Below, one piece after another: positions 18,078 to 60,900 of a stretch of 64,000 nucleotides of DNA. The DNA comes from Squalus acanthias. Lineage: Eukaryota. The stretch's first letter is position 1. The number at the start of each line of letters is the position of its first letter. The notes below the pieces were generated by a model. That model ran no database searches, was not told the origin of the DNA, and saw only the letters and a program-made list of their open reading frames with translations. The DNA is taken from positions 125,676,001 through 125,740,000 of the forward strand of contig CM059431.1 of the NCBI GenBank assembly GCA_030390025.1. The letters run 5' to 3'. Position numbers and translations under genes: made by a program.

Positions 18078-19846
18078 GGGCCGCAAATTTAATAGCACTC
18101 AGAGGACGGGTTTGGAGGCGGGTCCGCTGTCAAAATAGCAAAGATTGACAGCGGGTAGGAAACCCGGTCAACCCGCCTCCACACGAGTCTCCCAGGTGTC
18201 GGGTCTGTCAGCGGAGAACTGACCCGACACCAAGCGGCGGGGGATACAATTCAGCTTGTTAAATGGCTTGTTAAGAGCCAATTTAAGACTATTTTGAGGC
18301 TTCCTTCAAATTTTATGTTCTCCACCACGGGTTACCCGCTGTTTGAGGAACACGTCAGCTCAACCTAGCGTGTTTTGAGTCTGCTCTGATGTTTCTGATA
18401 AGCTGACAGCTGCAGAAATGATGTGAAGGATGCCATGCTGCAGATAGTGAGTTTCAGAGCGCAGAAAATGTTGGTTACTGCATTTATTATACATATAGAG
18501 ATTTCTTTAGCTTACAAGTTTTTAGATCCAAATGTATGTCCAGTGCCACCTCATTGGAACAACCTCTTTCACCATTGACAGATCGCTTCTGTCATCCTGT
18601 CATCGCACCTGCAGCTGCCATCTATTGCAGAAAAATCGGTAACCTTGAAAAAATCAGACCTTGGTCCTCTGAATCCTTCCACGATCAGCCCCAACACCAA
18701 CATCACCAACAACATCACCAACCTTCTCCGCCATCACCTGATGCTGCACTGGGCACAGGGCATCATCCCCTGACAACATTGTTGCCCGGGAGGCCAGCGA
18801 TGGCATCACCATGGCCAGATTTTCTTTACTTGACACTGTAAACCTTGGCTGCCACATGATGTGCCAGGTTGACACAATCCCAGACCAGCACCGTGAAGCA
18901 TCCCTTTAATGTCCAAGCCATTCCATGCACATTCATCACTATAGCAGGGCAGGTGGGGGTGGGGGGGGGGAAGTTATGTCTCAACATTCACTGGAACTCA
19001 GTAAGACACTTCTCAAGGTGCGCACTGATCTGTCCAATAAGGGGCAGTGTAGGAAAAATAGATTGTACTGTATGACAACACATTACCAGAAACTTCACAT
19101 GGACATTGGCTAAACCTCTCAAGTGCCTACCCTTGCGTGCTGTTAGTTGCTATGCTTGCAGTAGGATGAGGGTGAGTGTGAGGGGTGGCTAGTGAGATGG
19201 GGAAGTGATAAAGTAGATAGAGAGGGTTGGGTGGAGTTGCAAGGTAAGTTGGTGTGAGTAAGGATGTGCAGGAGAAGGGTATGGAAGGCAGAGTGATGGG
19301 GATATGTTGAGTGGCACAGCAGGGTGAGTTTGAGTGTGGATTTGCAGTAACATTTTGTGATCCACTGAGATCATTGAAAGGTTGGCACCACTGCAGCCAG
19401 GGACTCCTGATGACATCCCTACTTTTGCCCTCCTGTGCAATGTGCAACCAGGCTGTGTTGGTGTCCTGAGGAGGTCTCGTCTGCCATTGGAAGGGAAGAG
19501 AACCTCCCTGCGTGCTGTGACTCCCTCCATAAGCATATGGAGGGAGTCATTGGAGAGCCTGGGTGCAAGTGTTCACCTTTGTGCAGTGCTTGTCAGTGTT
19601 TGCAGCACCTCAATGCTGTCAAACACTGACAGAACAACTGTCAAACTCCATGTGGATGTGGTCCCTTTAAGGAAACCGGCTGATGATGCGTCATCAAATG
19701 ACGTCATCAGACCCACTGCCTGTTAATTGGCTGGGAAGCCCACAAGGCCAATCAAGGGAAAATCCCATTTACAGAGCAGATGCAGCTGGGAGCGGGAAAC
19801 CAGCTCATCCGCCACCATCCCGCCTCCTCCATTAAATTTGCGGCCT
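18078..19846. mobile_element. Non-autonomous Harbinger (transposase core and Myb exons 2-3 deleted)
   Basis: TIR gggccgcaaatttaat / attaaatttgcggcct. Q/H-rich transposase N-terminus fused to its C-terminal tail (~18680-18830). Myb exon 1 on minus (MLMEGVTARREVLFPSNGRR). Confidence 0.85.
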
Positions 19847-21235
19847 CAGTCTCTGCTGCTCCAGGCTCTTCCCTTCTCACCCACAAGACCCTGTTAACTC
19901 CCTTTGAAACGTACCAGCGGGAAACCTCTGGGCCACCTGATCTTCGCCTGCTGGCCAGCTGCCTCTTTCTGCCCATTTCAGGGATGTAATCGAGGCCTAA
20001 ATAGCCCGGGGAGCAAATTGATGACATCAAGGGGGTTCGATACTCGTCTTGCACCCCACCTACCCAAAAACCCACTTCCAATTAACATCCCTCCCCCAAT
20101 ATCTCCAGATCATTGTCGTAGCACTAATGGTAATTTGAGTCATTTATTATTATTTCAAATAAATTTACAAATAATTCTGAAGGCCTACATGAAGGCTAAT
20201 GTTCTGTTCAAGAGTTAATGAATTAAATCCTTTTAACAGCTATTAAACTAACCAACAGAAGTGCCTGCTGATCTATAAATTGATGACTTTACATGTTTGA
20301 GTTGAACAGTATCTTATAATAACAATGTAATTACTTAGGGAGTTCAGTTATCATTAGCAAGCTGTTGACAGCAGGCTGGAATGCATTCATCATATGGGCC
20401 ACTCGTGTTAAAGGACACAAGTATTGAAGAGCCACCCTGAATACTGCAGAGTGACTCAAGAGGAAAATCAGGAGGATCAATTAAAAAGATGAAGTAACCA
20501 AGGAGCCATGGGTTGAATTATCAGGCCTCCCACTTGATCGGGGGTGGGGGGGGAATGAGTTACCGCCACGCTGCCGCCATGGCTTGGCATTGGCAATGTT
20601 CCGCCAGGCCTACCACTGGGTAGCCAGCTCTGCCCCCTGAGTCAGGCAGTAGGCCCATTTAAAATGCTAATCGAGGTCCTACGGTGTACATAGGTCTCCG
20701 ATTGACATTTTTGTTCTGAGCTGGGCGAAGCATGCATCATTCACATGCCGGGCAATATCAGCTGGTGGCCCAAACAAAGAGGATCCCAAAGGTAAGTTGC
20801 TCTTCATTTTTGGCATGCTGGAAGGAGCGGGATTGCTCCTCCAGTCTGCATAAAACCAGCCTGGGCCGCTGCCGCTCCAGCTACCCCTTCAGAGATCGGG
20901 GCCCCTCCCTTCTTACTTACCTTCGTGTGGCTCGGAGTCTGGCCAGGTGGCCTGATATTATGGAGGACTGAAGCCGGTGGGCTGCCTTGGCGGGTGCCTG
21001 AACTCTGGCCGCAGTCTGCTGACTCAATGCTAATGAGGCCCGCCCCTCAAAATGGACCGGGCATCGCAGCAGGGACCAGCGGGTGGCCGGCCAGTGTGTT
21101 CTCTCGACCAGCCACTTGAAGCCTGTTTGGGGGGAAACATCCGCCCCCATGTGTCTAAATTAAACATTCTTGCGTAACACACAGTTAACTGGCACTGAGT
21201 CGTGCTAAATGTCAGGAGCAGAGGAGAAACTATCT

Positions 21236-27230: not shown

Positions 27231-27247
27231 CTGCCTCTGTGTAATTT

Positions 27248-28744: not shown

Positions 28745-29498
28745 GGCCTGTATTTTCCGATGCCTATGGGTGTGTACGCGCCGTAGGGACATCGGAAATG
28801 CCGGTTTCAGACATGTGAAGCGGATGCACTGAAAACCGGTATTTCCAATCTGTCAAGAATGCTCTTGACAGATCGGACACCTGCCCTGGATAAGGGCCTA
28901 TGCAGGGGGAGAGTTCCACTTTCTGCAGAACCTCCGCCCGCTGAAAACCCTTAGAAATCTTACGCCTGGTAAAAGCAGGCGTAAGGCCTGCTTTTACCAG
29001 AATAAGAGCTGAAAAAAAGTGTTAAAAAATAATTTTTTTTCACTCATTTATAATTTAAAAATACTTTTAAAAAAGGTAAGTTTATTTTTAGCCCCATAAA
29101 AAAACTTTAATTTGATTTTTCAAAAAATTAATTTTTTGATAAAAATATTTAAATTAATGTAATTTTAACTCATTTTAAAAACGTGATTTTTTTTTTTACA
29201 TTTATTTAATGTTTTAGTGTCTTTTTGGGGTGATCTCCATTCATATATTTGACAGGTCTATCTGTCAAAAGTATGAAGGGAGATTCCCTTCTCCTATTGG
29301 TTGGCCTGGCCCACGTGATCCCAGGATCGCTTGCGAATCGCATGCGCCCCTGGGATACGTGGGCCCTGCGTATTTCGACTGTGGAGAGGCCCAGGATCGG
29401 AAGTGTCCGGACCTCGGGAGCCCTCAGGTAAGTTCGTAGATTTTTTTCTGATAGGAGGCCTCCGCACGCAGGAAGCCTCCTGTCGGAAATTACGGGCC
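28745..29498. mobile_element. Harbinger-type MITE related to the 35814 element
   Basis: TIR ggcctgtattttccga / tcggaaattacgggcc, flanks AAT/ATT. Subterminal ccggtttc...gaaaaccgg palindrome and AT-rich core. Confidence 0.75.
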
Positions 29499-31079
29499 AT
29501 TATATTTTCAAGTAATCTCCAGTGGAAGCATAAAAGTGAAAGTAAATATTATTGCAGAACAGAAACAGGCAATTATTCTGGACTCTGCTTTGTATGCGAA
29601 GAAATTCCATTTTTTAAATTCGGGGTTTTGAGACGGTTACACATTTTTACTCAAATATATCCTGCCTAAATCATGGCACTCATGATCTATCTATGATTCT
29701 ATGGGAGATTTTCCTAGATATGCACCCAGACACTCTAAATTGCCTGGATGCAGTGAATATTGGAAAGCTGTGTGGTTTAAAGTGCATGGCTATAAAGGGA
29801 CCCATTTGATTTTCCTCCCATTCAAATTCCTTCCTAAATTTATTCCATTTAATGCTTTGCTGTGCATGTGGTCTGACTCATTAAACCTTCCAATATCTGT
29901 TGCACCCAAACAATCTAGTGCTCCTGGGCACAGAGATAGCATGCAGAAGGAAGAAAGGGAATAGAGGAGAAAAATCAAATTGATAAGTTATAAGCAGCGA
30001 AAAGGCTGAGATTGCAGAACAAAAGTCAATGGAAAAGAAGTACCAAGAAGAGAAAGTGAATGTATTTCAATGCTCAGATTGTGAGAAATAAACTGGGTGA
30101 ATTAGAGACAATCATGTCACAGGAAGGAATAGATTTAATAGCACTAACAGAAACGTTGCAAACTGAACACAAATGGAAAATAATCATATTGGGAAAAATT
30201 TAATTTTAGAAGATAAAGATAAGCTAGCTGAGGTGAACTCAAAAGAGAAATTGGCACATAGGATTGTAGATCAACAATGGGATATTTTTAAAAAAGGAGA
30301 TTGCTTAGTTGCAGAATATACATATTCCAATAAAAAAATGAGACGACTTCAAATTTCAGAATGCTGTGGTTAAATAAAGAGGTTAGAAACAAACTAAAAT
30401 TGAGGAAGATGGAATATGAGACCTATACCTGTGATAAAAAAAGAGAATTCAAGAGAATAAGAAAAGAGGTTAAGAATGGGGTAAGGATAGCAAGGCGGGA
30501 ACATGAGGAGAAACTCTCAAAAAATATTACAGATAACAGTAAATTATTCTGTAAATATATCAGTAAAAGAACAATTGTTAAATGTGAGGTGGGACCTTAG
30601 AGATGAGAAAATAGCAAGTTATTAGAAGATAAGCAGAAGTTGGCAGGGATATTCAACAAGAACTCAGCTACAGTGTCTGCAGAGACGAATATTAAGGAAG
30701 AAGTAAATCCTGAATTGGTTAAAAGCAAGATGAAAGTTATTATAATAAATTAAAGGAAAACTTTAGAGAAGTTAGTTAAGCTAAAGGAGGACAAGTGTTG
30801 GGTCCTGATGGAATACATCCAAGCATCCTGAGGGAATTAGGAAAAGAAATAGCAGAGGGCCTAATAATTACATTTCAGGGTTCTACTGAGAGTGGATTTG
30901 TGTTCAAGGACTGGATTTTATAAAAGAGAGATCATGCTTGACAAACCTGAGAGAGCTCTTTGGGGAGGTGACAGATATGGCGGATGGGGATAATGATGTG
31001 CGGGTGGTGTAGATAGATTTTCAGTAAATCTTTGACAAGGTACCACATATCAGACTATTGGAGAAGATTAAAAGATATG

Positions 31080-31822
31080 GGGGGAAAAATTAGGTCGCGC
31101 CCCGTTTGGGGCGCAAATATCGTCTGGACGCAAATATTAGCGCCTGGCGCTAATTATCGCCACTGACTGGAAACTTCACTTTTACCGCCCCGGGAGGTGA
31201 GTGGAGCGCTAAATCAGGCGCTGCACACCTGTCTTAAGGCGCAAAGGCCGAGCAGTGAGGCGCTAACTCAGCGGGCGAGCGCAGCGCAGGTGCTGCCAGT
31301 TAGCGAGGGAACACAGACACACTGGCGCCGGCCAGTTCTTAAAGCGGGGGGGGGTCAACTGTTAGGATCAGTAGGCAAAACTACCTCACAAAGCGTTGAC
31401 TCAATGCAGAAGTCTCTCTTTCTCTCTCTCCGAATCTCTCTCTCTCTCTCAGAACGAGTGGTGCAAAAATGTCAACCACAGAAAAAGACAGGAAGAGGCC
31501 CCCTTTAAATAGCGCCCCCCCCCCAGCCCCACAGCGATTGATAGCGTTCCAGTCTTCCGGTCGTTGGATGCGCCAGGCGGTAAGGCAGGGGGCGCCACTC
31601 AATTTCCGCTCCGGGGCGCCACAAGGGCGTTGCACCATGGAATGACGTCACAATCTGCGCGCGCAGGTGGTCGCAGCGGTAAAGTTTAGCGCCGCCGCAC
31701 AATGTCTAGTTAAGTTCCGGAGCGGCGCAAACATCGCTGCGCCCGGGCGTTAGCGGCTTTGCGCCCCATTAGCGCCCTCTTAAGGCGCTAACGGGAGGCG
31801 CAACCAACTGAATTTTTACCCC
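31080..31822 (+). mobile_element. Harbinger-derived MITE, family A, copy 2 (internally deleted)
   Basis: TIRs as in copy 3, TSD ATG. Removing it restores the host CR1 sequence (aaagatATGgaatt). Confidence 0.9.
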
Positions 31823-32601
31823 ATGGAATTTGTGGGAAGGTAACAAATTGGATTAAAAATTGATTAGAAAGAGGAAACAGAGAGTAGGAGTTTAGGGCAG
31901 TTTCTCAGATGGATGGAAGTGGATAGCAGTGTCACATAGAGTTCTGTTGTGGGATTGCTTCTGTTCACTGTGTACATCAATTACTTGGATATAGGGCTAG
32001 AGAGAGTGGTGTCCAAATTTGCAACAAAACTAAAACAGGAGGCATAGTAAATAATTGTGAGGAACAAAGCAAGCTGCAATGGGGGTATGGATAAGATGGT
32101 GGAATGGGCAAATGGAATTTAATGATTGTAAATGTGAGATTTTTTTCAGTTAAACAAAAATAAAAGTAATACCTATATTTTGAGTGGAGGAAAACTGGGT
32201 GATGTGAAAGAGCAGAGGGAGTTGGTGGTTTAATTTCATAAAACATTAAGTGGATGAGGTCATAATAAAGCCAATGGAATACTAGGTAGTATGGCAAGAG
32301 GCATAGAATATAAATGTACAGATGTAATGGTGAGTCTATATAAAACCTTAGTAACATCACAGTTAGAGTACTATGTACAGATATGGAGTCAATAGAAAGG
32401 AAACAGAATAGATTAATTGGGATGTCGGCTGGTATGAGGATATACAAATACAAAGAAGACTTGGAAAATTGTGGCTATTTTCATTGGAACCAGAAGATTA
32501 ATGGGTAATTTTATGAAGAGATGAGGAAGAATAGAATAAAGCAGACTGTTTACAGTGATTTAGGTATCTAGAACAAGGGGACATAGTTAGAAGATTAAAT
32601 G

Positions 32602-34250
32602 TAAGAACATAGAAACATAGGAATGGGAGTAGGCCATTCAGCCGCACGACCCTGTTCCAGCATTCAATGAGATCAAGGCTAATCTGTATCCTAAGTCCAT
32701 CCACCTACCTTAGCTCCCTATCCATTAATACCCTTGGCTAGCAAAAATCTATCAATCTCAGATTTAAAATTATTGATTGAGGTAGCATCTACTGCTTTTT
32801 GTGAGAGAGAACTCCACACTTCTACCACCCTTTGCATGAAGAAGTGTTTCCTAACTTCTTTTCTGAATAGCCTGGCTCTGATTTTAAGGTTATGACACCT
32901 TGTCCTAGACTTGCCCACTAGCGGAGAAAGTTTCTCTCTACCTACCCTATCAATTCCTTTCAAAATCCTAAAAACCTCAATCAAATCCCCCCCTTAACCT
33001 TCTATATTCCAGGGAATACAAGCCTAGTTTGTGTAATCTCTCCTCATAATCTAACCCTTTGAGCCGGTAACATTCTGGTGAATCTGCACTGCACTCCTTC
33101 AAAGGCCAATGGCCCAGAAATTAAACATCGATGGTTCCCGCGGGGGTAAGGATTCCCCGCGATATCGCATTCCGCGCCTACCTTTTTGTTTGGGGCCCAC
33201 ATGAACTTTAGTTTCAGGGTCTCTCCCTGTTGCAACTGTGCAGTGCTTGCGTGACCCAGAGGCGCAATTAGTTTGTGCGAGCTCTGGGATCACGTGATTC
33301 AGTCAGAGCCAATGGCAGCACACCATCTTTCATTCATAGTTTTGACAGCAAGGGCTGTCAAAGCTAGGAATACTACAAGCCCCCAAAAGAACAGCTAAAC
33401 CTCAATTAAATATTAAAAAAGCCATCACATTAATAAAATAACTATAGTTAAATAAATTAACCACTTTAAACAAAAAATTAAATTATTGAAAAAATTTAAA
33501 ATCTTTTTAAAAGTTATAAAAATAAACTTACCTTTCTTTAAAGTCTGTAAAAAAGATAAACCTGTTGAAAAAAATTTAAAATAACACTTAATTAACTACT
33601 TACCTTGTTAAAAGGGGGTCCTACGCCTGCTTTCTTTATGTGTAAAATCTTCACCACTTACCTGCGCGCTCAAACCTGAAAAAAAACTAAGTGCACTGCG
33701 TGCGCACAACCTGTAGTGCGCACGCGGTTCACTTAGGAACCGCCCCCTTTGCAATACACGAAGTGCCGGTTTCCCGCGCATGCGCAGTGCATGCAGGAAA
33801 CCGGCAATTCGGGACCTAATACGCGAGAATACACAGTGCGTACTCTCGCGTATTAGGTCTAATTTTCGGGCCATTATATCCTTTCTAAGGTGCTGTGCCC
33901 AGAACTGTACACAGTACTCCAGATGTGGTCTAATCAGGGCTTTGTATAACTTCCTCCCCTTTATGTTCTAGCCCTCTAGTTATAAAGGCTAACATTTCAT
34001 TCACCCTTTTGATTATTTTTGTATATTTTAGTGATTTGTGTATGTGGATCCTTAAATCTCTTTGGATCGACACTGTTCCTAGCCTTTTACCATATAATCT
34101 GTCCTTTTTTTGAGGCAAAAAGGATGAGCTCACACTTACCTGCGTTGAAATCCATCTGCCACAGATTTGTCCACTCACTTAATCTATCAATATCTCTTTG
34201 TAATTTTATCATCCCATTTACACTACTTACTATGCAACCAATCTTTGTGA
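32602..34250 (-). mobile_element. CR1 LINE 3' fragment nested in the older CR1
   Basis: IEVFRILKG...FFMQRVVEVW (ORF 32718-32984) with a CR1 tail. Interrupted by the MITE at 33111-33872. Confidence 0.88.
33111..33872 (-). mobile_element. MITE related to the 35814-39537 Harbinger, opposite orientation
   Basis: Both ends match the ends of the 35814 element (ggcccagaaat..., ...tactctcgcgtatt...aattttcgggcc). Flanks AAT/ATT. Confidence 0.88.
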
Positions 34251-35065: not shown

Positions 35066-35078
35066 TCAATGATCTTAC

Positions 35079-35677: not shown

Positions 35678-36591
35678 ACTTGTAATGTATTATCACATGG
35701 TTTGTCACATGGTTTTGTATGAGCATGCTCAGTTTGCTCTGGCCTAATAAACAAGCACAAGGACTGGCAACTCATCCTGTCTCTGTCCTTCATTTGTTCT
35801 GCCCACATATATTGGCCCAAAAATTAGTCTCAGTATGCGAGAGTACGCACTGTGTACTCTCGCGTATTCTGTCTCCAATTGCCGGTTTTCTGCATGCACT
35901 GCGCATGCGCTGAAAACCGGCACTTCATGTTGGTTCACCTGCAGGTATCTCCGTGGAATCGCGTGGGCCGGAGATTCTGCGCGTGCGTCCTGAACTTTAA
36001 TATTTTTCTGTATGAAAGTAGTGTTTGTAAGCTCCTAGCAGTTACACATGTAAAAAGCAGGAGTAAGAGCCATTTTTGAAGATCCGGAGACAGCAGGAGG
36101 AATAAATCCTTTTGCAGTGGGGCTACTGAAGTGAGTTTTTTTAAATCTGAAAGCCACCAAAGTTTATTTAATTAAGTCTTAGGTAAGTTTGCAATTTTAA
36201 AAAAAGTTTAAAAACGGGTTTTGACCATTTGGAGTAGTATAGCAACTGTGGGTGTGTGCAAGGCATATTTAGGTATCTATCATAAATGTGAAAATGAAAG
36301 TTTAAAAATGAACTATTTACATTTCAAAAAGTTTTAAAGATGAAAATGAGTAAGTAAGTATGTATGTATGTATGTATGCATGTATGCATTAATTTATGAA
36401 AATGTTACAGTTCTGGAAAATCAACTAGGGCCGTGTGGCGGGTAGATGTGTTCCCAATCCGATAGCGCACATTTCCCACCATAGCCCGACCTGATTTTAT
36501 AGCCACTCACTTTACTAAAGTTACTTTAACAACTATTTCCATTTTTTCATTACAACTTTCTGTTTGAAGAGGAAGCCTGTGAGGGAGAAAG

Positions 36592-37740: not shown

Positions 37741-38291
37741 TGTCGCCTTGTACCTCCCCCTCCCCCTCCCCCTCCCTCTCCCTCTCCCGCAGCAAGGCAA
37801 ATAAAGGTACAGACACAATTTAAAGTGAAACAGTGCTCTTTTATTGCAGCATTATAGACTTCTGAGGTTCATTGTTGATGTACATAGTTTATAACTTTTC
37901 AATGTTAACTAGCTACTTTTCAACTTTGTAAACAATCATAAACAGAAATAGGTTAGAAAAAAAATTGTAAACAGTTCTGACTTACTTTTTTGCTTCGTTA
38001 ATGCAATAAAGACATTCAAGATGGAAAATAACTCTTTCCTAAATGTAAAACAGTTTTAATGTTCAATTTTTTTGTGCAAATAAACAATTTGAATTTTTAA
38101 AAAGTGAATAGAGGCTGTACTTTTTCAATGAAAAGCTTACTTACAGTTTCAGTGTCAAATATATATTTAAATTTAAAAAAATGAAAACATGTAACTTTTG
38201 AATAAAACGAAAAATTAAACAATTGAAAAATTTACCCACTCGAAACTATTCCTGAGGGTCAATGGATGTGCATTGTGGAACATGCAACACC

Positions 38292-40492: not shown

Positions 40493-40533
40493 ATAGTGTT
40501 CAACCTTCGAGTGGACAAGTTTAAGGTGAATTT

Positions 40534-42601: not shown

Positions 42602-45213
42602 GGCCGGAATTTTCCGGGGTGTCCACGGGCGGGATCAGTCGCGGGTTGGGTGGGAAAGTGTTTTTTTTTTACAGCGCCTTTTCCAATGTCAGGTCTGTCA
42701 GCGCTGAGCCGACCAGACAGGCAGTGGCGGGTGACCCAATTAAACTAATTATAATGTACTTACCAGATTCTTAACAGGCTTTTTTTACCTTACTTTTTAA
42801 CTTTAACTTCATGGCCATGGGAACCACGCTGTTCGGTGACAACGTGTGTCAACCTGAGGCGGGAGGTCAGTGGCCATTGCTCCAGCTGATTACCTGACAG
42901 CTTCAAATGTAAAGTAAAAGCTCCCACCTGACAGAGATCACTTTCCTCAGCCACAGTTTTTCCTCACTGCATTTCCACAACAGATTCAGCATGCTGCAAG
43001 TCTTTTCACAAGTCTCCATCCAGTCTCACCTCATTACCTCTCTCACCATTCTGTCATCTGTACTTCACCTGCCATCTATTGCATCAGCATGGGTGCCGTT
43101 TATACTTTCGCACCTTGGTCCTCAGAATCGGACCAAAATCAGCCCCAACACCAGCAGTGGCAGGCACACCAGCAGCACCAACAACAACAACTTCTCTGCA
43201 ATCAACATAAGGTCAGAAATGGGGATGTTCGCTGATGACTGCACAGTGTTCAGCGCCATTCACAACTCCTCAGATAATGAAGCAGTCCATGCCCGCATGC
43301 AACAAGACCTGGATGACGTTCAGGCTTGGGCTGATAAGTGGCAGGTAACATTCGCGCCACAGAAGTGCCAGGCAATGACTATCTCCAACAAGCGAGAGTC
43401 TAACCACCTCCCCTTGACATTCAATGGCATTACCATCGTCGAATCCCCCACCACCAACATCCTGGGGGTCACCATTGACCAGAAACTTAACTGGACCAGC
43501 CACATAAATACTGTGGCAACAAGAGCAGGTCAGACACTAGGTATTCTGCGGCGAGTGTCTCACCTCCTGACTCCCCAAAGCCTTTCCACCATCTACAAGG
43601 CACAAGTCAGGAGTGTAATGGAATACTCTCCACTTACCTGGATGAGTGCAGCTGCAATACCACTCAAGAAGCTCGACACCATCCAGGACAAAGCAGCCCA
43701 CTTGATTGGCACCCCATCCACCACCTTAAACATTCACTCCCTCCACCACCGGTGTACCGTGGCTGCAGTGTGCACCATCTACAAGATGCACTGCAGCAAC
43801 TCGCCAAGGCTTCTTTAGCAGCAGCTCCCAAACCCCCAACCTCTTCCACCTAGAAGGACAAGGGCAGCAGGCGCATGGAAACACCACCACCTCCAAGTTC
43901 CCCTCCAAGTCATACACCATCCTGACTTAGAAGTATATCGCCGATCATTCATCGTCGCTGGGTCAAAATCCTGGAACTCCCTACCAACAGCACTGTGGGA
44001 GTACCTTCACCACATGGACTGCAGCGGTTCAAGAGGCGGCTCACCACCACCTTCTCAAGGGCAACTAGGGATGGGCAATAAATGCTGGTCTTGCCAGCGA
44101 TGCCCAGATCCCATAAGCGAATAAAAAAAAACTGATGTTGCACAGGACACAGGGCATCAGCACCCGACCACATTGCTGCCTGGGAGGCCAGGGATGGTCT
44201 CATCATGGCCAGATTTACTTAATTTTTCACTGTAAACCCTGGCTGCCACATGATGCACCAGGTTGGCACCCCCCCACACCAACAACATAAAGCATCCCTA
44301 CAATGCCCAAGCTATTCCTTTCACACTCATCACCATTGCGGGGGGTACCGTTATGTCTCACCATTCACTGCAACTCACTAAGCCACTTCCAAAGGTGCAC
44401 ACAAATCTCTCGAAGGCCAGAAAGTGCTGAAAATAAAGGTTTTAATGTTTGACACTACATTAATAGAAACTTTACATAAACATTGGATAAAACACCCAAG
44501 TGGCTACCCTTGTGTATTGTTAGTTGATATGATTGCACTAGGATGAGGGTAAATGTGAGGGGTGGCTACTGAGATAGGGAAGTGATAATGTAGATAGAGT
44601 GGGATGGGTGGAGGTGCAAGGTAAGTGGTGTGACTAAGGATGTGCAGGAGTATGATAGGGAAGGCAGTTGGGGATGGGATGAGAGGCACAACAGGATGAG
44701 GTTGAGGGTGGCTTTGTACTAATGTTTTGTCATCTAATGAGATCATTGAAAGGTTTGTGCCATTGCACCCAGGTCCTCCTGACGACATCCCTGCTTGTGC
44801 CCTGCTGTGCAATATGCAACCAGGCTGTTTTGGTCTCCTGGGGAGGTGTCTTCCGCCCATGGGAAGGGAAGAGGACCACTCTTCATGCACTGACTCCCTC
44901 CATAGCATATGGAGGGAGTCATGGGAGAATCTGGGTACAGCCCTCTGCCTCTGTGCAGTCATTGTCAGTGTTTGCAGCACTTCAATGCTGTAGAACACTG
45001 ACAGCACAAATGTCAAAATAAAGTTGGCCATGGTCTCTTTAAGGAAACCAGCTGATGACGCGTCATGAATGATGTCATCAGACCTGCTTCCTCTAATTGG
45101 CCGGCAAATGCGCTGGGTGGGCTTAACAAGCCCAATCAATGTAAATTCATTTTAGACAGCAGGGCCCTGACCCACCACCGATATCGTCCACCGAGTTGAG
45201 CAAAATCCCGGCC
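42602..45213. mobile_element. Non-autonomous Harbinger, same architecture as 18078-19846, with a LINE insert
   Basis: TIR ggccggaatttt / aaaatcccggcc. Myb exon 1 on minus (MTAQRQRAVPRFSHDSLHML). Fused transposase termini. Confidence 0.85.
43203..44130 (+). mobile_element. CR1-group LINE 3' fragment (same family as 2673-4450)
   Basis: Highly similar to 3593-4450, FADD motif, A tail. Confidence 0.93.
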
Positions 45214-46770: not shown

Positions 46771-49318
46771 CCACTACAAATCACTACAAATCCTACAGAA
46801 GAGGATGAAGCTGATTATGGGGGGTGGATTTCCGTGTTTTTCCAGGATTTCTGCCGATCTGCCACCGAAGTTACATCGGATGAGCAGGAAAAAGGGCAGG
46901 GGAATGGGACTAAAGGGATTGCTCATTCAAAGAGTTGACACAGGCACGATGGGCCGACCAGCCTCTTCCTGTGCTGTGTGATTCTATGAGCAGTTGAACC
47001 CCTGTGGAAATTTCCCGCCTGTGTGCTTTCAGTTGCAAGATTTTTGTGAAGGTTGCAGAGTGTGCCATAAGAAGTATTACGGGCTTTCTTGGCATTTTAC
47101 CTATTTTTCTACCATTTTTTACTTGAATTCCTCAAAGCAGCCTTCTAATAGAAAATGGCTTGCCGTCTCCTTTGAGGACTTGTAACCAAATGAAAATTGT
47201 GAGGCATGCTGCTTCATCGACTTTGCAATTGAAGTTTTTTGTCGATGTTGGTCTTGAAATTGCAGAAAATGCATAAGAAATCATTAATAATGATCTTTGG
47301 TTAAATTTTATGAGTTACAGCTCCAGGCATGGAGCCTCACGCAACAGGAGGTCAGATTGGAAAATTGGGCTCGGAGGTTAGTGTGCCTGATTCATGGCCC
47401 TCCTGATTTCTCTGGTCATTATAATTAACAAGCAGAAATTACAAAGGCTACAAGTCAGGCACACAGACCCGCTGCACCTGATTATTTAATGTGCCTGCTG
47501 ACTGAACCCAGTACTCTCCTGGTCTGTAAGACTCAGTTCCACGCTGGCAAGTACATTAATCAACTTAGCATTCAGCGTAGCTGCAGTGATACCATAAGTA
47601 GTTATTCAATGAAAAGCAGTGCACCTGAGGTGTAAACAAAATATAAGAATGCAAAATATCTCCGCAAGTAAGTGCAGCAAGCGTTTACATGACTCCCTCA
47701 ATTATATGACAGCAATTATTTTCATCTTTCTTCGGCCTTTGATTGGGATCCAAGCATCAACTTAATTTAAAGAATTGAAATATCTGAAGACCGAATGCAA
47801 ATAAAATGGAGTTCAAATATATGCTAGGTTAAGTTCTGTATGAGTAAAATTATGCTGCGCTTGAGAAGAACAAATTTACAACACAGCAACAGGAGTAATT
47901 TGATTTCCACAAAAGAGAAAAGTAAATAAGTGGAACAGGAGATGTGCCATCTGTTTGCATGCCATTTATTTTTGCTCGAAGGTGTTTTACAGATGTGCAA
48001 ACGTCTGTTTAACAGATTTAACAGATGAAATATTACAATGCATTGTGGGCCTTTTAAAATTACAATTCATTTCATTGTTTTTGTTTGCTTATTCTGCTTA
48101 TTTTACATGTTAGTTAATGACCTTTTCAAAACTGCCATTAATGGCCCATTCTTCAAAAACCCCACCCTTGGCCTGTCTGTACTTTCCAATGTACTTTCCA
48201 AACACCACCCCAAGTCTAACCTTCCCTTCCTTTCCATGGTCTTTGAATTTGCCATCACATCCATGGTCACCGCTCCCACAAATTCCTGTTCCAATCCCTC
48301 GGCCGGTATTTTCCGTACCTGGGCAGGTCGGGTGCGGGCGGTCACCGTGGTGGATAGTGACCCCGTTACTGATTCCGTGCCACTCCTCAGATCAACTTTG
48401 TGTTAATGGGGCCTATTAAGGCGGCCCTATTAAATGGTGCGGGTCTGATGACGTTCTCGATGACGTGTTTTCAGCCCGGATATTTAAATGAGCCACGGCC
48501 ACATTGCATTTGAAGGTTCATTTAGGGGTGGGCAGGCAGCACACTGCATAATTGGACCGCTGGAAAGAGTGCCAAATATGACAGCACTGAGACAGAGGGC
48601 TGCACCCAGGTTCACAGATGACTCCCTCCATATGCTTGTGGAGGGAGTGAGAGCACGCAGGGAGGTCCTCTTCCCTTCTAATGGGCGGAAGAGACTTCCC
48701 CATTAGACCAAAAGAGCCTGGCTCCAAATAGCAAAGGAGGTCAACAGCAGGGATGTGGTCAGGAGGACCTGGGCGCAGGGTCGCAAACATTTCAAAAATC
48801 TCATTAGATCAGGAAAGGTGAGTACAAAACCACATTGAACTTCATCCTGCTGTGCTTCTCATCACAACCCCATCACTCTGCCTTACCAACCCTGCTGCTG
48901 CCCATCCTTGCTCACACCAACATACCTTGCACGTCCACCCATCCCTCTCTCTCTATCTACATTATCACATCCCCATCTGACTAGCCACCCCTCACACTCA
49001 CCCTCATCTTAATGCAATCAAACCAACTAACAACACACAAGGAGGCCACTTGGCTTTGGCACCACACTTCACCATAGTCTCTCTCTAAAGATGTAACCCA
49101 TCCATTCCTTACACTCATTCCATCACTCTCACTCAACCTTCTCTTCTTTCCCTCCTTGCAGGAAAAGAGAACCCAAAATAAGAGGGAGAGAACCGGAGGT
49201 GGAATGCCATCATTGGCGATCCTAACATCATGATGCGGAGATGCCGGTGTTGGACTGGGGTGGACAAAATTGAGAGGTCGCACAACACCAGGTTATAGTC
49301 CAACAGTTTTATTTGAAA

Positions 49319-49360
49319 TCACAAGCTTTCGGAGCTATCGATCGCCCCTTCCTCAGGTGA
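49319..49360 (-). ncRNA. Minimal hammerhead motif in the Penelope terminal region
   Basis: tcac-CTGAGGA-a-ggggc-gatcgata-gctcc-GAAA-gc-TT-gtga. Confidence 0.7.
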
Positions 49361-49694
49361 AGTAGTAAAGAAATACAGACTCGACAAAGCATATATAGAT
49401 AGAGAACAATGCATGTGTACCTTACAATTGCAGACAACTAAATTAAATCATCCTGACTATCTGCCGAGGTGTGATAAAGTTAATCAGGTCAGCCAGGAAG
49501 GTACCACATCAAAGACATAGCAAGATACAACTGAGACAATGAGGTGGAGTCGCAGGGGGTCTAACGTGTCAAAAGCTGCCGTCTGTAAGTAAAACGATAA
49601 GCTGTAAATTTTTTTTACTTTTTTACTGGGAAAATTTTTACTTTTTTACTGGGAATCACATCTGTGAACAAGCCAACGACGACTCGAGTCCGGA

Positions 49695-51474
49695 TCACGT
49701 CATGTATCGTGACATAAACCCAAGATCCTGGTTGAGACCGTCTTCATGAGTGCGGAACTTGGCTATCAGTTTCTGCTCGATGATTTTGCGCTGTCGTGTG
49801 TTCCTAAGGTTGCCTTGGAGAACGCTTACCCGCAAATCCGACGCTGAATGTCCTTGACTGCTGAAGTGTTCCCCGACTGGGAGGTAACAATCCTGCCTGG
49901 TGATTGTTGCACGGTGCTCGTTCATACGTTGTCTCAGTGTCTGCATGGTCTCGCCGATGTACCATGCCACGGTGCATTCTTTCCTGCAACGTATGAGGTA
50001 GACAACGTTGGCCGAGTCATATGAGTATGTACCATGTACCTGGTGGGTAGTGTCCTCACGTGTGATGGTGGTATCTGTGTTGATGATCTGGCATGTCTTG
50101 CAGAGTTTGCCGTGGCAGGGTTGTGTGGTGTCGTGGTCGCTGTTATCCTGAAAGCTGGGTAATTTGCTGCGAACGATGGTACTTCTGAGGTTAGGCGGCT
50201 GTTTGAAGGCAAGTAGTGCAGGCGTGGGGATGGCCTTAGCGAGGTGTTTGTCATCATCGATGACATGTTGAAGGCTGCGAAGAACATGGCGTAGTTTCTC
50301 CGCTCCGGGGAAGTACTGGACGACGTAGGGTACCCTGTTGGTTGTGTCCCGTGTTTGCCTTCTGAGGAGGTCTATGCGATTTTTCGCTGTGGCCCGTCGG
50401 AACTGTCGATCGATGAGTCGAGCGTCATATCCCGTTCTTACGAGGGCGTTTTTCAGCGTCCGTAGGTGTCCATCGCATTCCTCCTCGTCTGAGCAGATCC
50501 TGTGTATTCGCAGGGCTTGTCCATAGGGGATGGCTTCTTTAACGTGGTTAGGGTGGAAGCTGGAGAAGTGGAGCATCGTGAGGTTGTCCGTGGGCTTGCG
50601 GTAGAGTGAAGTGCTGAGGTGTCCGTCTTTGATGGAGATTCGTGTGTCCAGGAATGAAACCGATTCTGAGGAGTGGTCCATGGTGAGTTTGATGGTGGGA
50701 TGGAACTTGTTGATGTTATCGTGTAGTCTTTTCAGTGATCCTTCGCCATGGGTCCAAAGGAAGAAAATGTCGTCGATGTATCTGGTGTACAGTGTTGGCT
50801 GGAGGTCCTGTGCAGCGAAGAAGTCTTGCTCGAACTTGTGCATGAAGATGTTGGCGTATTGGGGTGCGAATTTGGTCCCCATGGCTGTTCCGTGTGTTTG
50901 GGTAAAAAAATGGTTGTCGAAGGTGAAGACATTGTGATCAAGGATGAAGCGGATGAGTTGTAGGATGGCGTCTGGAGATTGGCTGTTGTTGGTGTTGAGT
51001 ACTGAGGCTGTCGCAGCGATGCCGTCATCGTGGGGGATACTGGTGTGGAGTGCCGATACGTCCATCGTGGCGAGGAGTGTTCCCGGTTCAACTGGTCCGT
51101 GGGTGCTGAGTTTCTGTAAGAAGTCTGTAGTGTCGCGACAGAAGCTGGGGGTTCCCTGTACGATGGGTTTCAGAATGCTCTCGACGTATCCAGAGAGGTT
51201 CTCACACAGGGTTCCATTGCTTGATACGATAGGACGTCCGGGTGTGTTGGCTTTGTGTATCTTTGGGAGGCAGTAGAAGTCTCCCACGCGGGGAGTACGT
51301 GGGATGAGAGCGCGTAGGATGTTTTGAAGGTCTGGATCGAAGGTCTTGATCAGTCTATTGAGTTGGCGGGTGTGTTCTTTGGTCGGATCTGCGGGTAGCT
51401 GTCTGTAGTGTTCCTGGTTGTCCAGTTGTCGGTATGCTTCTTTACAATAGTCCGTTCTGTTCTGTATGACGATG
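49695..51474 (-). CDS. Penelope reverse transcriptase + GIY-YIG endonuclease (N-terminally truncated, uninterrupted)
   Basis: FYCLPKIHK, GRPIVS, MDVSAL, GTAMG, RYIDD, YRKPT, NVVYLIRC...YIGET...QRMNEHR. Confidence 0.92.
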
Positions 51475-52999
51475 GATCCTAACATCAGCAGAGGAGACTG
51501 CCTTGGAAGTTTCTGGAGTTGCCGAGCAGCTGGAGGTGGGAGACGGAGTGAGGGGGACATCCCAGCAACCTGGTGACGGAATTACATATCATGCAGCTAC
51601 TTGGCATACATCAGTCACTCATATGGGGAATGATGTCATCAGCCACTGTATGGTCATCATGTGCATGATGGTATCTGTACCCATTCTTCATAGGACATAT
51701 CTAACTCATCTCTTTACTCTCCCACAGGTCCATCAAGAGCCCCCCGCCACCCCTCCCACACTGTCCAGGGGGAAGAGGAAGACGACTCCTCAAAGGAGCC
51801 TCCAGCCTCTGAGGGCACATCATCACCAGACATAAGTGCACCCAGCACCAGCGCAGATATGCACACCTCGGTGGGTGCCACGCGACATAGATTATTGTTG
51901 TCACCTGGTGTGTCACAAGTGAGCAAGAGGAGATGGTGGAGACAGAGACAGCAGTGGAGATTCCTCGCCGGAGGGCACAGGAAGCTCCCGGCTCTGCTCA
52001 GCTGCATGCAGACGCTGAGCCTCGGGGGCCATCGAGAAAGAGGGTGTTCCTGGTGGTGCTGCAAGAAGTGCAGGAGGCTTTGACAAGTTTTGCAACCGCG
52101 GTGTCTGCAAATGTGCAGAGAATAGAGGCGTGCATCTCCAACATGAGCACCACCGTGTCGCAAGTGATGGCGACTGTAGGCTCTTCCATGGAAAGGATGG
52201 CCATCTGCATGGAGCAGCTAATGTGCCAGTCACAGGAGCACATGGTCTCTTGGAGAATAGATGGCAGAGGCTCATAGACCTTCTCTCTTGGTGGGATGTC
52301 AATGTAGACATGGGTCCTCATGGCCCTACTGCTGTTCAGCAAGGTGCTCTCCAGCTCCTTGCTAGCAGGGAAGTGTGGGTGGCCCAAGAGAGGGATGATG
52401 GTGAGAGGGGACATGAAGTGGGGGCTCCTCTCAAAGCGCTCACACTTTTCCCCAGTTGTCACCCGCTCAATCAGAGCCCCAGATGCCTCCTCAAATAGCG
52501 ATGGATGAGTCTGCCCCTGAACAGTCGCAGGAGGAGCAGACTTTGGCGGGGCCATCAGAGTCTCGAAAACCCAGAGGATGTCCGCCAAAAGCGTCTAAGC
52601 AGTCACAGCAGTGAAGTGAGCAGGCTGCCTCTACCTCTGCTGAAGCCACAGGGGTAGCATCTTGTAGAAGCACGTGTAAGAGTAAGGTGGAACACAAACA
52701 GATTCACAAGGGTAGCCACTTGGGTGTTTTATTCAATGTTTCTGCAAAGTTTCCGTTACTGAAATGTCACACATAAAAATCTTTATTTTCACTAATTTCC
52801 AGTCATGGACAAATTTGTGTGCATTTTTGGAAATGGCTTAGTGAGTTGGAGTTAATGGTCAGACATAACGTTACCTCCAGCAATGGTGGACAGTGTGAAA
52901 GGAATGACTTGGTCATTGTAGGGATGCTTTATGGTGTTGCTGTGGTGTAGTGCCAACCTGGCACAGAATGTGGCAGCCATATGGTTGTTACATGTAAAG

Positions 53000-54233
53000 T
53001 TAAGTAAATCTGGCCATGATGAGGCCATCCCTGCCCTCCCGGGCAGCAACGTACTCAGGTGCTGGTGGCAACTAGACCGCAGGGTCCTCCTGCTCCTTCT
53101 CCTCCTCGTCTTCCAGCTGATGCTACTCCTCCACCTCCTCCTCCAAAGAGGCTGTGTGCTCAGTGCCTTGCTCCTCATGCAGCGCTAATCCTCGCTGCTG
53201 CGCTCTGTTGTGCAGGATGCAGCAGACCACGATGGTTCTGGAGACTCTGGCTGGTGCATACTGAAGGGCTCCTTCAGATCTGTCAAGGCATCTGAAGTGC
53301 ATTTTGAGCATGCCTATTGTCTGCTCTATGACACATCTGGTGGAAATATGGCTTTCATTATATCTCTCCTGGGCCTCTGTACTTGGCCTCCTCAAGGGTT
53401 TCATGAGCCACATCTTCAGTGGATAGCGCTTGTCTCCAAGCAGCCAGCCGGAAAGTCTGTTTGGAGGAGCGAAGAGCTGAGGGAGGGTGGACTGGCGCTG
53501 GACAAAAGACACATGACAACTGCCAGGGAATTTGGTGCTTCCATGCATGATGATCTTCCTATGGCTGCAGACCAGCTGCACATTGAGGGAGTGGTTAACA
53601 AAGACTCCTGGGTGATGATGGGGTGCCCTGATGGCCACAATGTGTGCAGTCAATGATGCCCTGCACATGTGGGAAGCCAGCCAGAGTGGCAACGCCGAAT
53701 GCCCGTTCAGTAACACTGGCTTTATCAGTGGCAAAGTTGATATAATTGGCTGACTTGTCAAACAGGGCATCGGTGACCTGTGTGATGCATCTGTGGGCGG
53801 CCGACTGCGAGATGCCGCAAATGTCTGTTGCAGATCCCTAGATGCAGCCTGAGGCGAAGATGTTGAGGGTGCTGGTGACTTTGACAGCCCCTGGTAAGGC
53901 ATGTCCACCCGTTCCTCTGGGCTGCAGGTCTTGTTCCAGCAATCTGCAAATGTCTGCAACGACCTGGCGCAATAGCCTGAGCCTCCTTTGGCACTGCTGC
54001 TCAGTCATGTAGAGGAAACTCATCCTCTGCCTGTATACCCTGTGTTGGGGGTATCGCCTCCGGCGCGGTGCAGCCCTGAGCTGATGCCCTCTGTCCTGTG
54101 CAGCATCAGGTGGCTCAGGAAAAGGTTGGTGGTGTTGTTGTTGGTGCTGCTGGTGTGCCTGGTTCTGCTGGTGTTGGGGCTCATCATGGTCCAATTCTGA
54201 GGACCAAGATGAGAGAGTATAAATGGCACTCAT
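53000..54233 (-). pseudogene. Harbinger DDE transposase, frameshifted
   Basis: Q/H-rich N-terminus, [47 protein letters not shown], acidic tail ending MARFT*. Confidence 0.9.
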
Positions 54234-55809
54234 GCTTGTGTAATAGATGGCAGGTCAAGTAGAGATGACAGAAGCAATTTGTCAATGATGTGACAGGTTC
54301 TAACAATGAGTTGACACTGGATGGTGACTTTGCTGGAAACACTTGCAGCCTGCAGAAAGCTAAAGCTCTGCTGGTAATGCAGTCAGCAACAGCTTCTGCC
54401 TGAGGAAAGTGATCAACTGTGTGGTGAGAGTTTTTTGGTACTGTGCACTAATCAGCTGGATCAATGGCCACTCAACTTCCGCCCCAGGTTCCCGAGCTGC
54501 GTGATTCCCGTGGTCATCCAGTGAAATTTGAAAGGTAGGGATGAAAAGACTCTTAAGGGTCTGACAAGTACCTAATAATGAGTTAAATTAGCTCGTCCGC
54601 CTCTGCCATGCGGGTCGCTTTCGCACCGGCAAACACGCCCAAGGAAAAGGCGCGTGGGAGCAGGATGACGGTGGTTTCCCAACCCGCTGCAAGATATTTC
54701 AAATTTCCCACCCGACTCGCCTCTGATCGCGCCCGCACGGACCCCAGAAAATTCCGGCCCTCCAGTTCAGTTTCTGCCCTGATCACAGAATCAAGATCAC
54801 TTTGGTCAAAGTCACCAATGATATCTTTTAGATTGTGATTACGGTGTATTGTCCCTCCTTGTTCTCCTGTGTATAACACAGTTTAACCACTCCATCTTCC
54901 TCCATCACCTCTCCTGTATTGTCTAGCTCAGTGTGACTCACCTTATATGGTTCCACTTCTACTGGTGCATCTCAAAATAACGGCTTCTAATTTCCCTCAT
55001 GCTCCCGCACAGTCATCTCCAAGAGTTCTCAAATTCTATCCTGGGCCCCCTCCTCTTCAGCTGCATGCTTCCCCACGGTAACATCATCTGCATGCAATGA
55101 TTCAGATTTGATATGTATGCCGATGACACCAAGTTCTCCACCACTGCCCTTAACCACATGACTACCACAGGACTGCCAGACTGCCCGTCTGATATTAAGT
55201 CATGGATGAGCCAAAATGTCCGCCAGTTGAAAGCTGGAAATATCAAAGCCGTTGTTTTCAGCCCCCCGACCCCACCATGAACTCTTGCCACTCAGTCAGG
55301 CTGAATCAGGCTTGAAATTTCAGCATCCTCTTCAATCCAGATCTGAGCTTCACATTCTATCCATCACCAAGACTGCCTACTTCCTACAACATCACCGGCC
55401 ACACCATATCTCACCCCACTGACGCTTATTCACATTTTTTTGATCTCAGTCACCTCTCCTAACTCTCCGGCCATGGCCTGGCATCTCTTTTATTTTTGCA
55501 TTAAAGGTTCTATATAAAAGCAACTTATTGCTGTCACTGTAATCATTGGCATCAAAATTGCCATTCAACCTTTAGGGGCCAGCAAAGAATTCAGTGATGT
55601 CCTTTTGGAAGCTTGACTTCCCTTAAAACACTAAATAAAGGATAATCCAGAACTATGTGCTACTTAGTCCATCTGATGGGTCAAATTAATTTCTTTTAGT
55701 TCCACACTTTCTTATATTATTATCATGTGGCAGACACTGAGTACAGATTCCGCTAAAAAATTTAACATTTTTAATTAATAAAAATAATTTTTGCTTGTTA
55801 CCACACTTT

Positions 55810-57901: not shown

Positions 57902-60900
57902 GGGCTCGATTTTGCCAGGCCCGAGGAGGTGGGATTGGAGGCGTGTGAGGTGTTAAAATCGTGAAAAATGGCGGGCGGGCGGGCCCAATCCCGCCTCCAT
58001 CCCGCCTCCGCGCAATTTTCCCAAATGCATATTTTCTGTCCCCATCTCCATCCCGCCATTTTGAGCGGCCTTTCTGATTTTAACACTTTTCCCACGTGGT
58101 TCATGTCTGCTCTGAAACACGCCAGTGAAACCTGGCGTCAGCACAAGTGGATTGCTTACTAACAGCTGCAGCTCCAACATTAAAAAGGAGTTTTCAGCAA
58201 TCATCATTTGCAGATGGCAGAACTTTGTTGTCTCAGGTCTGGGGGAACTTTTAGCAGGCATACCCATTGTTGTGGAAGTTTGGAGCCTGACACCCATCTC
58301 CAGTGTGACCTCCTGGGAAACCCCTCTCGCCACCTTGAATGAGCGCTTCCTCAACTGAGGCATATACCAGAAGAATGGGTACCATTTATTTCCTTTCCTC
58401 CTGGACATCAGATTCGGACGAAGACCAGCCGTGGTAGCAACAGATCCATGAACAACAGCACCACTAACAGCAGCAGCAACAACAGGAGCGCCAAGCTGCT
58501 GCTCACCCACCTGAAGCTGCACAGGCTAGAAGGCGCCAGCGCGCGACCATATTGCTGCCCGAGATGCAAGGGACGCACTCCTCTTGGCCAGATTTGCTTA
58601 GCCTGCACAATCAAACACTTTTGCCTCGCACCTTCTTATCAGACCATCGACAATGGCCAAGAACCTGCGGATTGCTATCACTCTGACCACCATACTGACA
58701 ATTGCAAGTCATCCTAAGCCCTCAGTGTGGAAGTCCCATTAACGATATGACAGACGCCACAACTGCAACAGTTGCCATCAGAATGTTTTATTTACTATAA
58801 CCAACTGATGGCGTTTCAAAATTAAACATGACATTTCACCCAAGTGACTACCCTTGTGACTACTTGTGCATTATCTTCCTCTTATGCGTGCTCCTACGTG
58901 ATGCCTCCCCTGTGGCTTCAGCAGATGTGGAGGCCCCTTGCTCACTTTCTTGCTGCTCCTGTCTCGATACCTTTGGCGGGCGTCCTCTGGGGTAGCGAGC
59001 CTGTGAGGGCTCGGCACCAGTCTGCTGCTCCTGCGGCTGTGCAGGGGTTGAGACGCCGATCTCAGTTGGGTGGGGACACTGGTGGGGCTTTGACCGAGGA
59101 CATTGCAGTGGCATGGTCGTGTGAGCGCTTGGAGAGGAGCCCCCACTTCCTTGTTGTCTGCCGCCAACATCCCTCTCATGGGTCAGCCCCACTTCAGAGC
59201 TAGCAAGTGGATTGACTGCACCTTGCTGCGCTTAAGCGGGGCCATGAGGACCCGTTTCTGTACTGGAAGTCCTACTCCCAAGGACTTGCCTGAAGGTCTG
59301 GTTTGTTTGCTCAATAGCTAATCATCACTCCTCAAGAGATGTCAGTCTATTCTGTACAATGACCATGTTTTCCATACCCTGGCGACTAAGCTCATTGATG
59401 GACGTAGCCATCCTCTCCTCTACCGTAGCCATCCTCTCCTCTACGATAGCCAGCCTTACCATGGAGGTAGCCATCCTTTCCATGGAGGTTGCCTTCCTTT
59501 CCGTGGTGATACGTTCATGCGCCAACGCCTCCACAAAGGCTCTGCTCATGTTCGCGATGGACTCCTCCATTCGCTCCACACTCACAGTGACCCTGGAGAC
59601 AAAACCTGCCAGAGACTCCTGCACTTCTTCCTGGAGTTCCAGCACCGCTGTTCTTCTGGATGGACCCGGCGGCAGAGGGTCGACTTGCAGCTGAGCCGAG
59701 CTGGCAGAGTCCTGCGCCCTCTGATTAGGACTCTCCACTGCTGTCCCTGACTCCACCATCTGCTGATGCTCACTTGTGAGCTGTGATACACCAGCTGACA
59801 ACACTACTCTATCTCGCGAAGGTACCACCGAGGTGTGAGTGTCTGCGCTGGTGCTGGGTGCGCTGAATTCTGCTGACGCTGCGCCCTCAGAGGTTGCAGC
59901 TTCCTCTGAGGTGTCTGGAGGCTCAGGCTGTTCCTCCTGGATAGTGGGGATGGGGGCTGTCGATGGTCCTGTGGGGAAGTAAAGGAAAGAGTCAGAGATG
60001 TGAGGCCAAGGTTACATGCACATTGAATATTGCAGATGATCATAAGTCAATCTGTTATAGCATCAGAATCATTATCAGTGACTCATGCAATGTCAATGAG
60101 AGAGATGAAAAACTATTCTGTCACCAGCTTGCTCTGATGCACCCGTCTGTCCGTCCCCCACTTACGCATCGTCCTCCACTCCCACAATCTCCAAGGCCGC
60201 CTCCTCCCAGGGGGTGAGCTGGGCTACTGAGGGTGGCCCTCCTCCTGTCCTCGCTTTTTCCCTCTTATTGTGAGCTCTCTTTTCCTGCAATGAGGGAGAC
60301 AAGTGGAGTTTGAGTGAGAATGAAGGAGTGAGTGTAGAGAATCCATAGCATAGATGCCTAGAAGGAGACAAAGATTCAGTGAGGTGGCAAGACCAAGGGC
60401 CCTCCCTGTGTGTTATAAGTTGTTTTCATAACATCACAGCGATAGGGAGTGTGAGGGCTGCATAGTCGAATAGTTAAGTGAATGTGAACATACAGAGAGA
60501 GGGAATGGGTAAGGGTGCAGGGATGTCAGTGTCAAGTGGGATGTGGAGGAAGAGGTTGTCAAAGCAGAGTGATGGTGAGGAGAGGCAATGGGGATCAGAT
60601 TGAGGGTGATGGGAAAGTCATACTTACTTTTCCAGTGCGCAGAAGGTCATGAAACCTCTTCCTGCACAGCAGCCAGGTTCTGCGGCACATAGACAAGGAG
60701 TTGACCTCCTGGGCCACTTGCATCCACACAGCCTTCGTCTGCTGGGGAGGCTTCTTCCTCCCTGAAGAAGGGAAGAGCACCTCCTTATTCCCTCTTGCTC
60801 CCTCCACCAGAGCAAGCAGGGCGGTGTCATCAAACCTTGGTGCAGACTTAGGTCTACTGCTGGACATTTTGCCTGGAAGAAAGTATCAGAGCAAAGGCCA

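Follow-up and report, generated by a model that had tools for sequence, protein, structure and literature searches.

When several transposons carry exactly the same internal deletion, do they descend from one deleted ancestor, or can the same deletion arise more than once? This question is raised by a 64,000-nt stretch of Squalus acanthias DNA (assembly GCA_030390025.1, contig CM059431.1, positions 125,676,001 to 125,740,000), hereafter the window, which contains at least six Harbinger-type elements (E1-E6). Three of these, E2 (18079-19845, + strand), E3 (42602-45213, +) and E5 (57902-61147, +), lack the core of the transposase gene between the same two points, and a comparison of their terminal inverted repeats (TIRs) bears out that these differ from element to element. 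The original prediction offered two explanations: one old transposase-less lineage that diversified while keeping its second, Myb-like gene, or a deletion hotspot. Although the junction is base-identical in the three carriers, we find that they are not a clade on the DNA of Myb exon 1. The reading that we favor, and to which we give somewhat more than an even chance, is that deletions at one site removed the transposase core independently at least twice.

The reference for our comparisons is E4 (48301-54759, - strand), which has both genes and a matching 3-bp target site duplication (TSD; GAG/GAG). E4 had been described as complete, which is true of its structure but not of its coding capacity, as both genes are decayed. 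The transposase (53000-54233, -) contains a frameshift and stops; its C-terminal half matches DDE_Tnp_4 (PF13359, HARBI1-like; E 2.9e-26), and the nearest proteins are shark models annotated as “putative nuclease HARBI1”, four of them from Pristiophorus japonicus with 71-74% identity. The Myb-like gene has three exons (48578-52700, +; 3' end approximate), the second of which is split by a retroelement (49229-51490). The DDE_Tnp_4 transposase of this parent, the Myb/SANT second gene, the short TIRs and the 3-bp TSDs are those of PIF/Harbinger elements. The carriers have kept their ends, lost the transposase and are colinear with E4, as internal-deletion derivatives are. TIR pairs were found for E2-E6, and the TSD matches in 3 of these 5 elements (E4, E5 and E6; AAA/AAA in E5) and is mismatched in E2 and E3; none has the usual TWA. 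The lineage analyses below compare E2, E3, E4, E5 and 17 database proteins.

Once nested insertions are taken out, E2, E3 and E5 align to E4 with a single gap that occupies an identical column in all three. The claim of one shared junction therefore holds: the junction strings lie at 18758 (E2), 44152 (E3) and 58531 (E5), and the corresponding parent sites at 54089 and 53069 on the minus strand of E4. As measured on E4, the deleted segment is 1,019 nt long (53061-54079, -) and starts just ahead of a conserved N-terminal motif and extends through the whole acidic tail, so that the conserved N-terminal region, the DDE domain and the acidic tail have no counterpart in the three carriers. The two breakpoints share a 4-nt microhomology (cagc; E4 54083-54080 and 53064-53061), which falls at 18764-18767 in E2, 44158-44161 in E3 and 58537-58540 in E5 (all +). 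These four bases are the part of the proposed ca.cagc microhomology that is exact; the longer string contains one mismatch, and E2 reads catc. In E5, the deletion joins an N-terminal transposase remnant with two stops (58375-58536, +) to a C-terminal helix remnant that keeps its own stop codon (58542-58601, +), and the join shifts the latter out of frame. Between the two E4 regions there are 627 maximal exact repeats of at least 4 nt, including 66 of at least 6 nt. Given 627 available repeats and one diagonal used in all three copies, chance is not a credible source of the shared junction.

If the junction arose once and was inherited vertically, then its carriers should group together. Because unrooted quartets cannot test for a clade, we used trees of Myb exon 1 (~73 codons, 219 columns) rooted with the distant copies in E1 and E6. 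In the DNA tree, E4 groups with E2 and E3 (support 85/88) and E5 stands apart; a clade of E2, E3 and E5 is rejected (p-AU 0.0027; approximately unbiased, AU, test). Pairwise identities agree, E5 being farthest from the others in 7 of 8 segments and level with E2 in the 5' subterminal segment. Jukes-Cantor distances in Myb intron 1 are 0.17-0.20 among E2, E3 and E4 and 0.46-0.57 to E5 (E3-E4 0.20, E3-E5 0.55), and in the 5' untranslated region they are 0.24 for E3-E4 and 0.83 for E3-E5.

A further line of evidence comes from the transposase sequence that the deletion left behind. Had E5 and E3 separated after the loss of the core, these remnants would be expected to have diverged neutrally. Instead, when the E5 remnants are compared with the state shared by most of E2, E3 and E4 (144 nt), third codon positions account for 20 of 37 differences (p 0.0075) and the terminal stop has survived. 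Omega stands at 0.36 (pN/pS interval 0.27-0.75), similar to the 0.31 of Myb exon 1. Pairs among E2, E3 and E4 have no third-position bias in the remnants.

E2 and E3 also share a second deletion, which removed Myb exons 2-3. An imperfect direct repeat of ~20 bp brackets these exons in both subfamilies (E4 52724 and 49054; E5 58839 and 60391), and the deletion in E2 and E3 falls exactly between the repeat copies (junction 2 at 19118-19138 in E2 and, at the same site, 44495-44514 in E3; both +). What is left of Myb in these elements is exon 1, with one frameshift in E2 (19346-19566, -) and one frameshift plus stops in E3 (44718-44940, -; ends approximate), and the frameshift position differs between the two. 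Two of the three junction copies are therefore not Myb-coding. Differences in exon 1 of E2 and E3 look neutral (omega 0.73-0.88, intervals including 1; for E2 versus E3, 0.73 with an interval of 0.36-2.1).

The Myb-like gene of E5 (58860-60867, -) was predicted to be whole. All three exons are present (exon 1, 60867-60625; exon 2, 60284-60135; exon 3, ~59970-58860) and there is no frameshift, but the gene has four premature stops within ~500 codons. Exon 1 encodes a Myb_DNA-bind_5 domain (PF13873, E 3.2e-09, above the cutoff), and the homologous exon is found in E2, E3 and E4. Between E5 and E4, Myb omega is 0.29-0.72 depending on the exon, a comparison that spans autonomous time. The fourth transposase-less element, E1 (5793-7680, +), had been cited as another Myb carrier without transposase. 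It does have a decayed Myb and no transposase match, but it lacks junction 1 and is a member of a distant family. The protein tree places its exon 1 outside the E2-E5 group, and its DNA matches to these elements are all short; on these grounds we rejected it as part of the junction group. None of the transposase-less copies in the window thus has an intact Myb, although decay after insertion could hide a subfamily whose Myb was once intact. As side observations, exon 3 of E5 contains in-frame 21-bp repeats (59390-59500, -) that add heptad-like units not present in E4, and there is a further short fragment of Myb exon 1, related to that of E1, at 15059-15163 (-).

The relationships among E2, E3 and E4 change along the elements. 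In the 5' half, E4 groups with E3 (AU 0.99; other groupings below 0.01), whereas Myb intron 1 and exon 1 group E3 with E2 (AU 0.97, others 0.03; Fisher p 2.6e-06 for the change between the two regions). This switch implies that either E2 or E3 is a recombinant. The stretch between junctions 1 and 2 and the whole-element quartets gave no resolved grouping. In E2, the two TIRs match each other and differ from those of E3, the flanking 3-mers are unequal, and the interior is 82-85% identical to E3 in Myb intron 1 and exon 1; it is possible that E2 swapped its ends for the termini of another subfamily.

We next looked for relatives of these copies among database proteins. Residues 1-62 of a sawshark model, UniRef100_UPI00398E3549 (P0005), match an antisense reading across junction 1 of E2 (57% identical) and E3 (60%), in the same register; this was the case for 1 of 16 proteins tested. 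Read this way, the model contains a fourth junction-bearing copy, outside the window, and is probably a chimeric prediction in which a junction-bearing copy is spliced to a core-bearing one. P0003 and P0005, two sawshark models of the transposase in which the core is complete, have flanks of the E3/E4 type on both the 5' and 3' sides, which indicates that the flanks of E3 are those of a real autonomous family. Three tail states of the core-bearing model P0017 are found in E5 but not in the E4 group. Other searches returned little: a junction-peptide profile run against 1.84 billion representatives gave one match, P0017, in which the N-terminus was aligned and the junction was not spanned; Myb exon 1 retained 0 of 152 candidates; and the three matches of a 19-base tail motif in metagenome contigs were in no case window-like. 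E2 and E3 sit at separate loci with both junctions in common, P0005 holds an E2-like junction copy, and E5 is a single copy in the window. The two shared junctions and the P0005 copy support amplification of an E2/E3-type group after the deletion, as judged from these sequences.

Based on these data, we propose that the elements are dead, non-autonomous deletion derivatives within one clade of shark Harbinger transposons. The 1,019-nt core would have been lost once in the E4 subfamily, giving rise to E3 and probably E2, and once in the more distant E5 subfamily; E3 and E2 would afterwards have come to share the deletion of Myb exons 2-3. Each loss of the core could have resulted from gap repair that was aborted after excision, with microhomology-mediated joining to close the gap; the joining would have used a short motif whose similarity in both subfamilies may be due to its coding for protein. 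With their TIRs retained, the derivatives would have been mobilized by proteins provided in trans, as is established for the superfamily. Both proteins would have been required in trans by E2 and E3. In the E5 subfamily, Myb could for some time have been produced by the elements themselves, although we see no sign of selection on Myb after the transposase was lost.

Several observations weigh against two independent deletions. The comparison of lineages rests on four copies, and the protein tree of Myb exon 1, which has the same grouping as the DNA tree (80/83), does not reject a clade of E2, E3 and E5 (p-AU 0.128). The third-position signal in the remnants stands at p 0.049 when E3 alone is compared with E5 and at p 0.07-0.2 for the tail only; a count of synonymous codons is significant for no pair, and the signal could have built up solely on the autonomous stem of E4. 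No autonomous parent of E5 was found, as transposase searches kept 2 of 450 and 14 of 165 candidates without a clear parent among them. Fit to the E5 tail is 50 for P0017, 49 for P0005 and 48 for P0003, and the N-terminus of P0017 fits E4 better. Above all, microhomology alone leaves the reuse of the site unexplained. Its four exact bases in E4 are a single pair out of 627 of this kind, and on 184-260 of 749 diagonals the match is equal to or better than that on the junction diagonal. Long microhomology at the core ends is absent from E4, and that of the family may once have been longer than what survives in this decayed copy, a guess prompted by one frameshifted protein model (P0003). Nor did we find a stem that brings the core ends together: in 6 of 6 folding tests the ends did no better than shuffles (117-182 of 200 shuffles equal or better), and on this basis we rejected a hairpin or cryptic inverted ends at the core.

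The difficulty of explaining site reuse is the strength of the chief alternative, in which a single old deletion persisted as an allele while its flanks were replaced time after time as it recombined, or switched templates, with autonomous families of the day, until the donor tract had shrunk to a few bases. Such spread accounts for base-identical junctions at an unremarkable site, and the switch of partners between the 5' half and Myb intron 1/exon 1 is evidence of mosaicism among these elements. The codon just right of the junction is also in its favor, encoding Asp in E2, E3 and E5 and Glu or Lys in E4, P0005 and P0017, but the sawshark junction copy, as back-read from P0005, seemingly lacks the Asp state at this one site. 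For a comparable case of precise deletion, Kodama, the authors prefer a single origin in the accessible text of their account (10.64898/2026.08.26.747230). The bases at the junction itself are harder to reconcile with spread. Over the 12 nt to its left, E3 has 1 difference from E4 and 6 from E5; E3 is thus E4-like to the last bases, with no donor tract, and the crossovers would have to fall within ~3 nt of the junction on that side. The 12 nt to the right weigh against independent deletions, with 4 differences between E3 and E4 and 3 between E3 and E5, although this even picture is largely due to private changes in E4. We rejected tail residues H-I as a hallmark of junction bearers, since they occur in the core-bearing P0001, P0003 and P0005 as well as in E3 and E5 and hence are ancestral. 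Moreover, subfamilies that are ~60-65% identical would be a poor substrate for homologous exchange. We regard recombinational spread as a serious but doubtful alternative.

A vertically inherited lineage that kept Myb under selection and borrowed transposase in trans, the first option of the original prediction, fares much worse, and we consider it very unlikely. The identity of the junction in three copies and the sawshark copy, the three exons of E5 without a frameshift, the protein tree and a parallel in Caenorhabditis inopinata (discussed below) all speak for it. Yet E2 and E3 have lost Myb exons 2-3, the DNA tree rejects the clade, the remnants carry the mark of selection in the transposase frame, and the non-coding sites of E5 would have to evolve several-fold faster than those of E3. 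Nesting of the carriers in separate groups with a neutrally decaying Myb, which had been named as evidence against a single lineage, is largely what we find, whereas junctions that differ once aligned, named to the same end, are not: they occupy a single column. Deletion at a putative hotspot, by whatever mechanism, fits better than this lineage. A split system, in which a satellite supplies its own adaptor, is conceivable for the E5 subfamily alone; for a nematode Harbinger, this idea is already in print (PMC13668399). We find it scarcely credible that the core was spliced out of a transcript as an intron and the spliced form copied back into DNA, although this would make the deletion precise and repeatable and one placement of the cut within the microhomology leaves the core ending in CAG: no placement on either strand of E4 gives GT-AG or GC-AG, purines predominate upstream of the right end, and E5 retains its Myb introns. 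In a more far-reaching reading, the core might be a built-in deletable cassette, either deleted repeatedly at its site or passed as a junction between subfamilies, with each event giving a Myb-only satellite that has its own TIRs and is amplified under selection on Myb with borrowed transposase; a second cassette, Myb exons 2-3 with the direct repeats that bound it, would then yield entirely non-coding forms. We consider this reading unlikely.

How do these elements compare with known systems? The closest counterpart is Harbinger-1M_cIno of C. inopinata, also a PIF/Harbinger deletion derivative in which a Myb/MADF gene was kept and the DDE gene is gone; its Myb/MADF-only branch is proposed to obtain transposase in trans, which the authors, in the part of the paper available, call new for the superfamily and hypothetical (PMC13668399). 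There, a single family is involved; of its 19 MADF-only loci, 14 are intact and several show expression, and one insertion is recent (PMC13668399). The shark side, in contrast, consists of one decayed Myb-bearing copy known from DNA alone, and the junction crosses subfamilies. A second counterpart is the Kodama/Nozomi Transib system of Drosophila melanogaster, where all short copies have one precise internal deletion with a 5-bp microhomology and where single versus repeated origin is likewise the question (10.64898/2026.08.26.747230). According to the accessible text, Kodama/Nozomi is a one-gene Transib in one family with a single origin favored, whereas the shark carriers are ~0.5 substitutions/site apart in intron 1 and form no clade.

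Deletion derivatives of other transposons provide further context. The mosquito MITEs (miniature inverted-repeat transposable elements) known as Gnome, Elf and Goblin arose from Ozma by internal deletions at 6-8-bp microhomologies, which have been attributed to gap repair that was aborted, together with microhomology-mediated joining; unlike in the shark elements, each derivative has its own breakpoints, and those of the four mPing subtypes are nearby but different, as far as the accessible sections describe them (PMC3814204). In rice, the non-autonomous deletion derivatives of the Ping/Pong/mPing system are mobilized in trans, and ORF1 (open reading frame 1) of one family functions with the transposase of the other; mPing is non-coding, unlike the Myb-bearing E5 (PMC2836001, accessible text). 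That mixed Ping/Pong pairs work makes borrowing plausible, and it would at the same time weaken the need of a satellite for its own adaptor. E4 and E6, which carry both genes, resemble vertebrate Harbingers of the Harbinger3_DR type in their TIRs, 3-bp TSD and convergent DDE transposase and Myb-like genes (PMC9179366, PMC9392472). Both proteins are needed for Harbinger mobility, with Myb binding the TIRs (PMC9392472, citing Sinzelle et al. 2008), and occasional recombination between the two genes has been suggested for fish Harbingers (PMC9179366, PMC9392472). Myb-retaining deletion derivatives are not described in the accessible portions of these accounts, one of which found no Harbinger in elephant shark and called for a check of other cartilaginous fish (PMC9179366). 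Our literature search, which left most subscription journals, Repbase reports and supplements outside its reach, found no report of one junction across diverged Harbinger subfamilies or of shark Myb-only Harbingers.

If the same base was indeed deleted independently in distant subfamilies, then shared deletion junctions cannot serve to prove common descent when transposons are annotated, and the question of single versus repeated origin that Kodama raised gains a case in which the flanks have diverged enough for testing. If instead the junction was spread by recombination, then exchange can occur between elements only ~60-65% alike. On either reading, the Myb-only Harbingers of the nematode would gain a counterpart in vertebrates, though the present copies are dead fossils.

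The window contains a number of other repeats. E6 (35814-39537, +), our outgroup, is a complete Harbinger of another family (TSD ATT/ATT) whose transposase frame has 1 stop and no frameshift across ~380 codons; its closest relative is a model from Scyliorhinus torazame (59%). The retroelement in Myb exon 2 of E4 (49229-51490, -) is 5'-truncated, and its 13-bp flanking duplication and 596 stop-free codons indicate that it is much younger than its host. Its motifs make it a putative Penelope-like element, and short repeats at 10263-10420 and 12204-12430 are similar to its 3' end. The transposase remnant of E3 is interrupted by a 3' fragment with poly(A) (43203-44131, +) that is 92-94% identical to 3593-4450; we infer from the poly(A) and its dispersal that it is LINE-like (long interspersed nuclear element). 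Related repeats at 10707-12090 and 61237-62862 (71-81% identical, ~1.4-1.6 kb) have TG...CA-like ends and a GAGAT microsatellite and are possibly solo long terminal repeats. Lastly, MITE-like elements with GGG or GGCC termini, which are likely Harbinger-related, occur at 15807-16684, 31067-31824, 39591-40494, 28745-29498 and 33111-33872.

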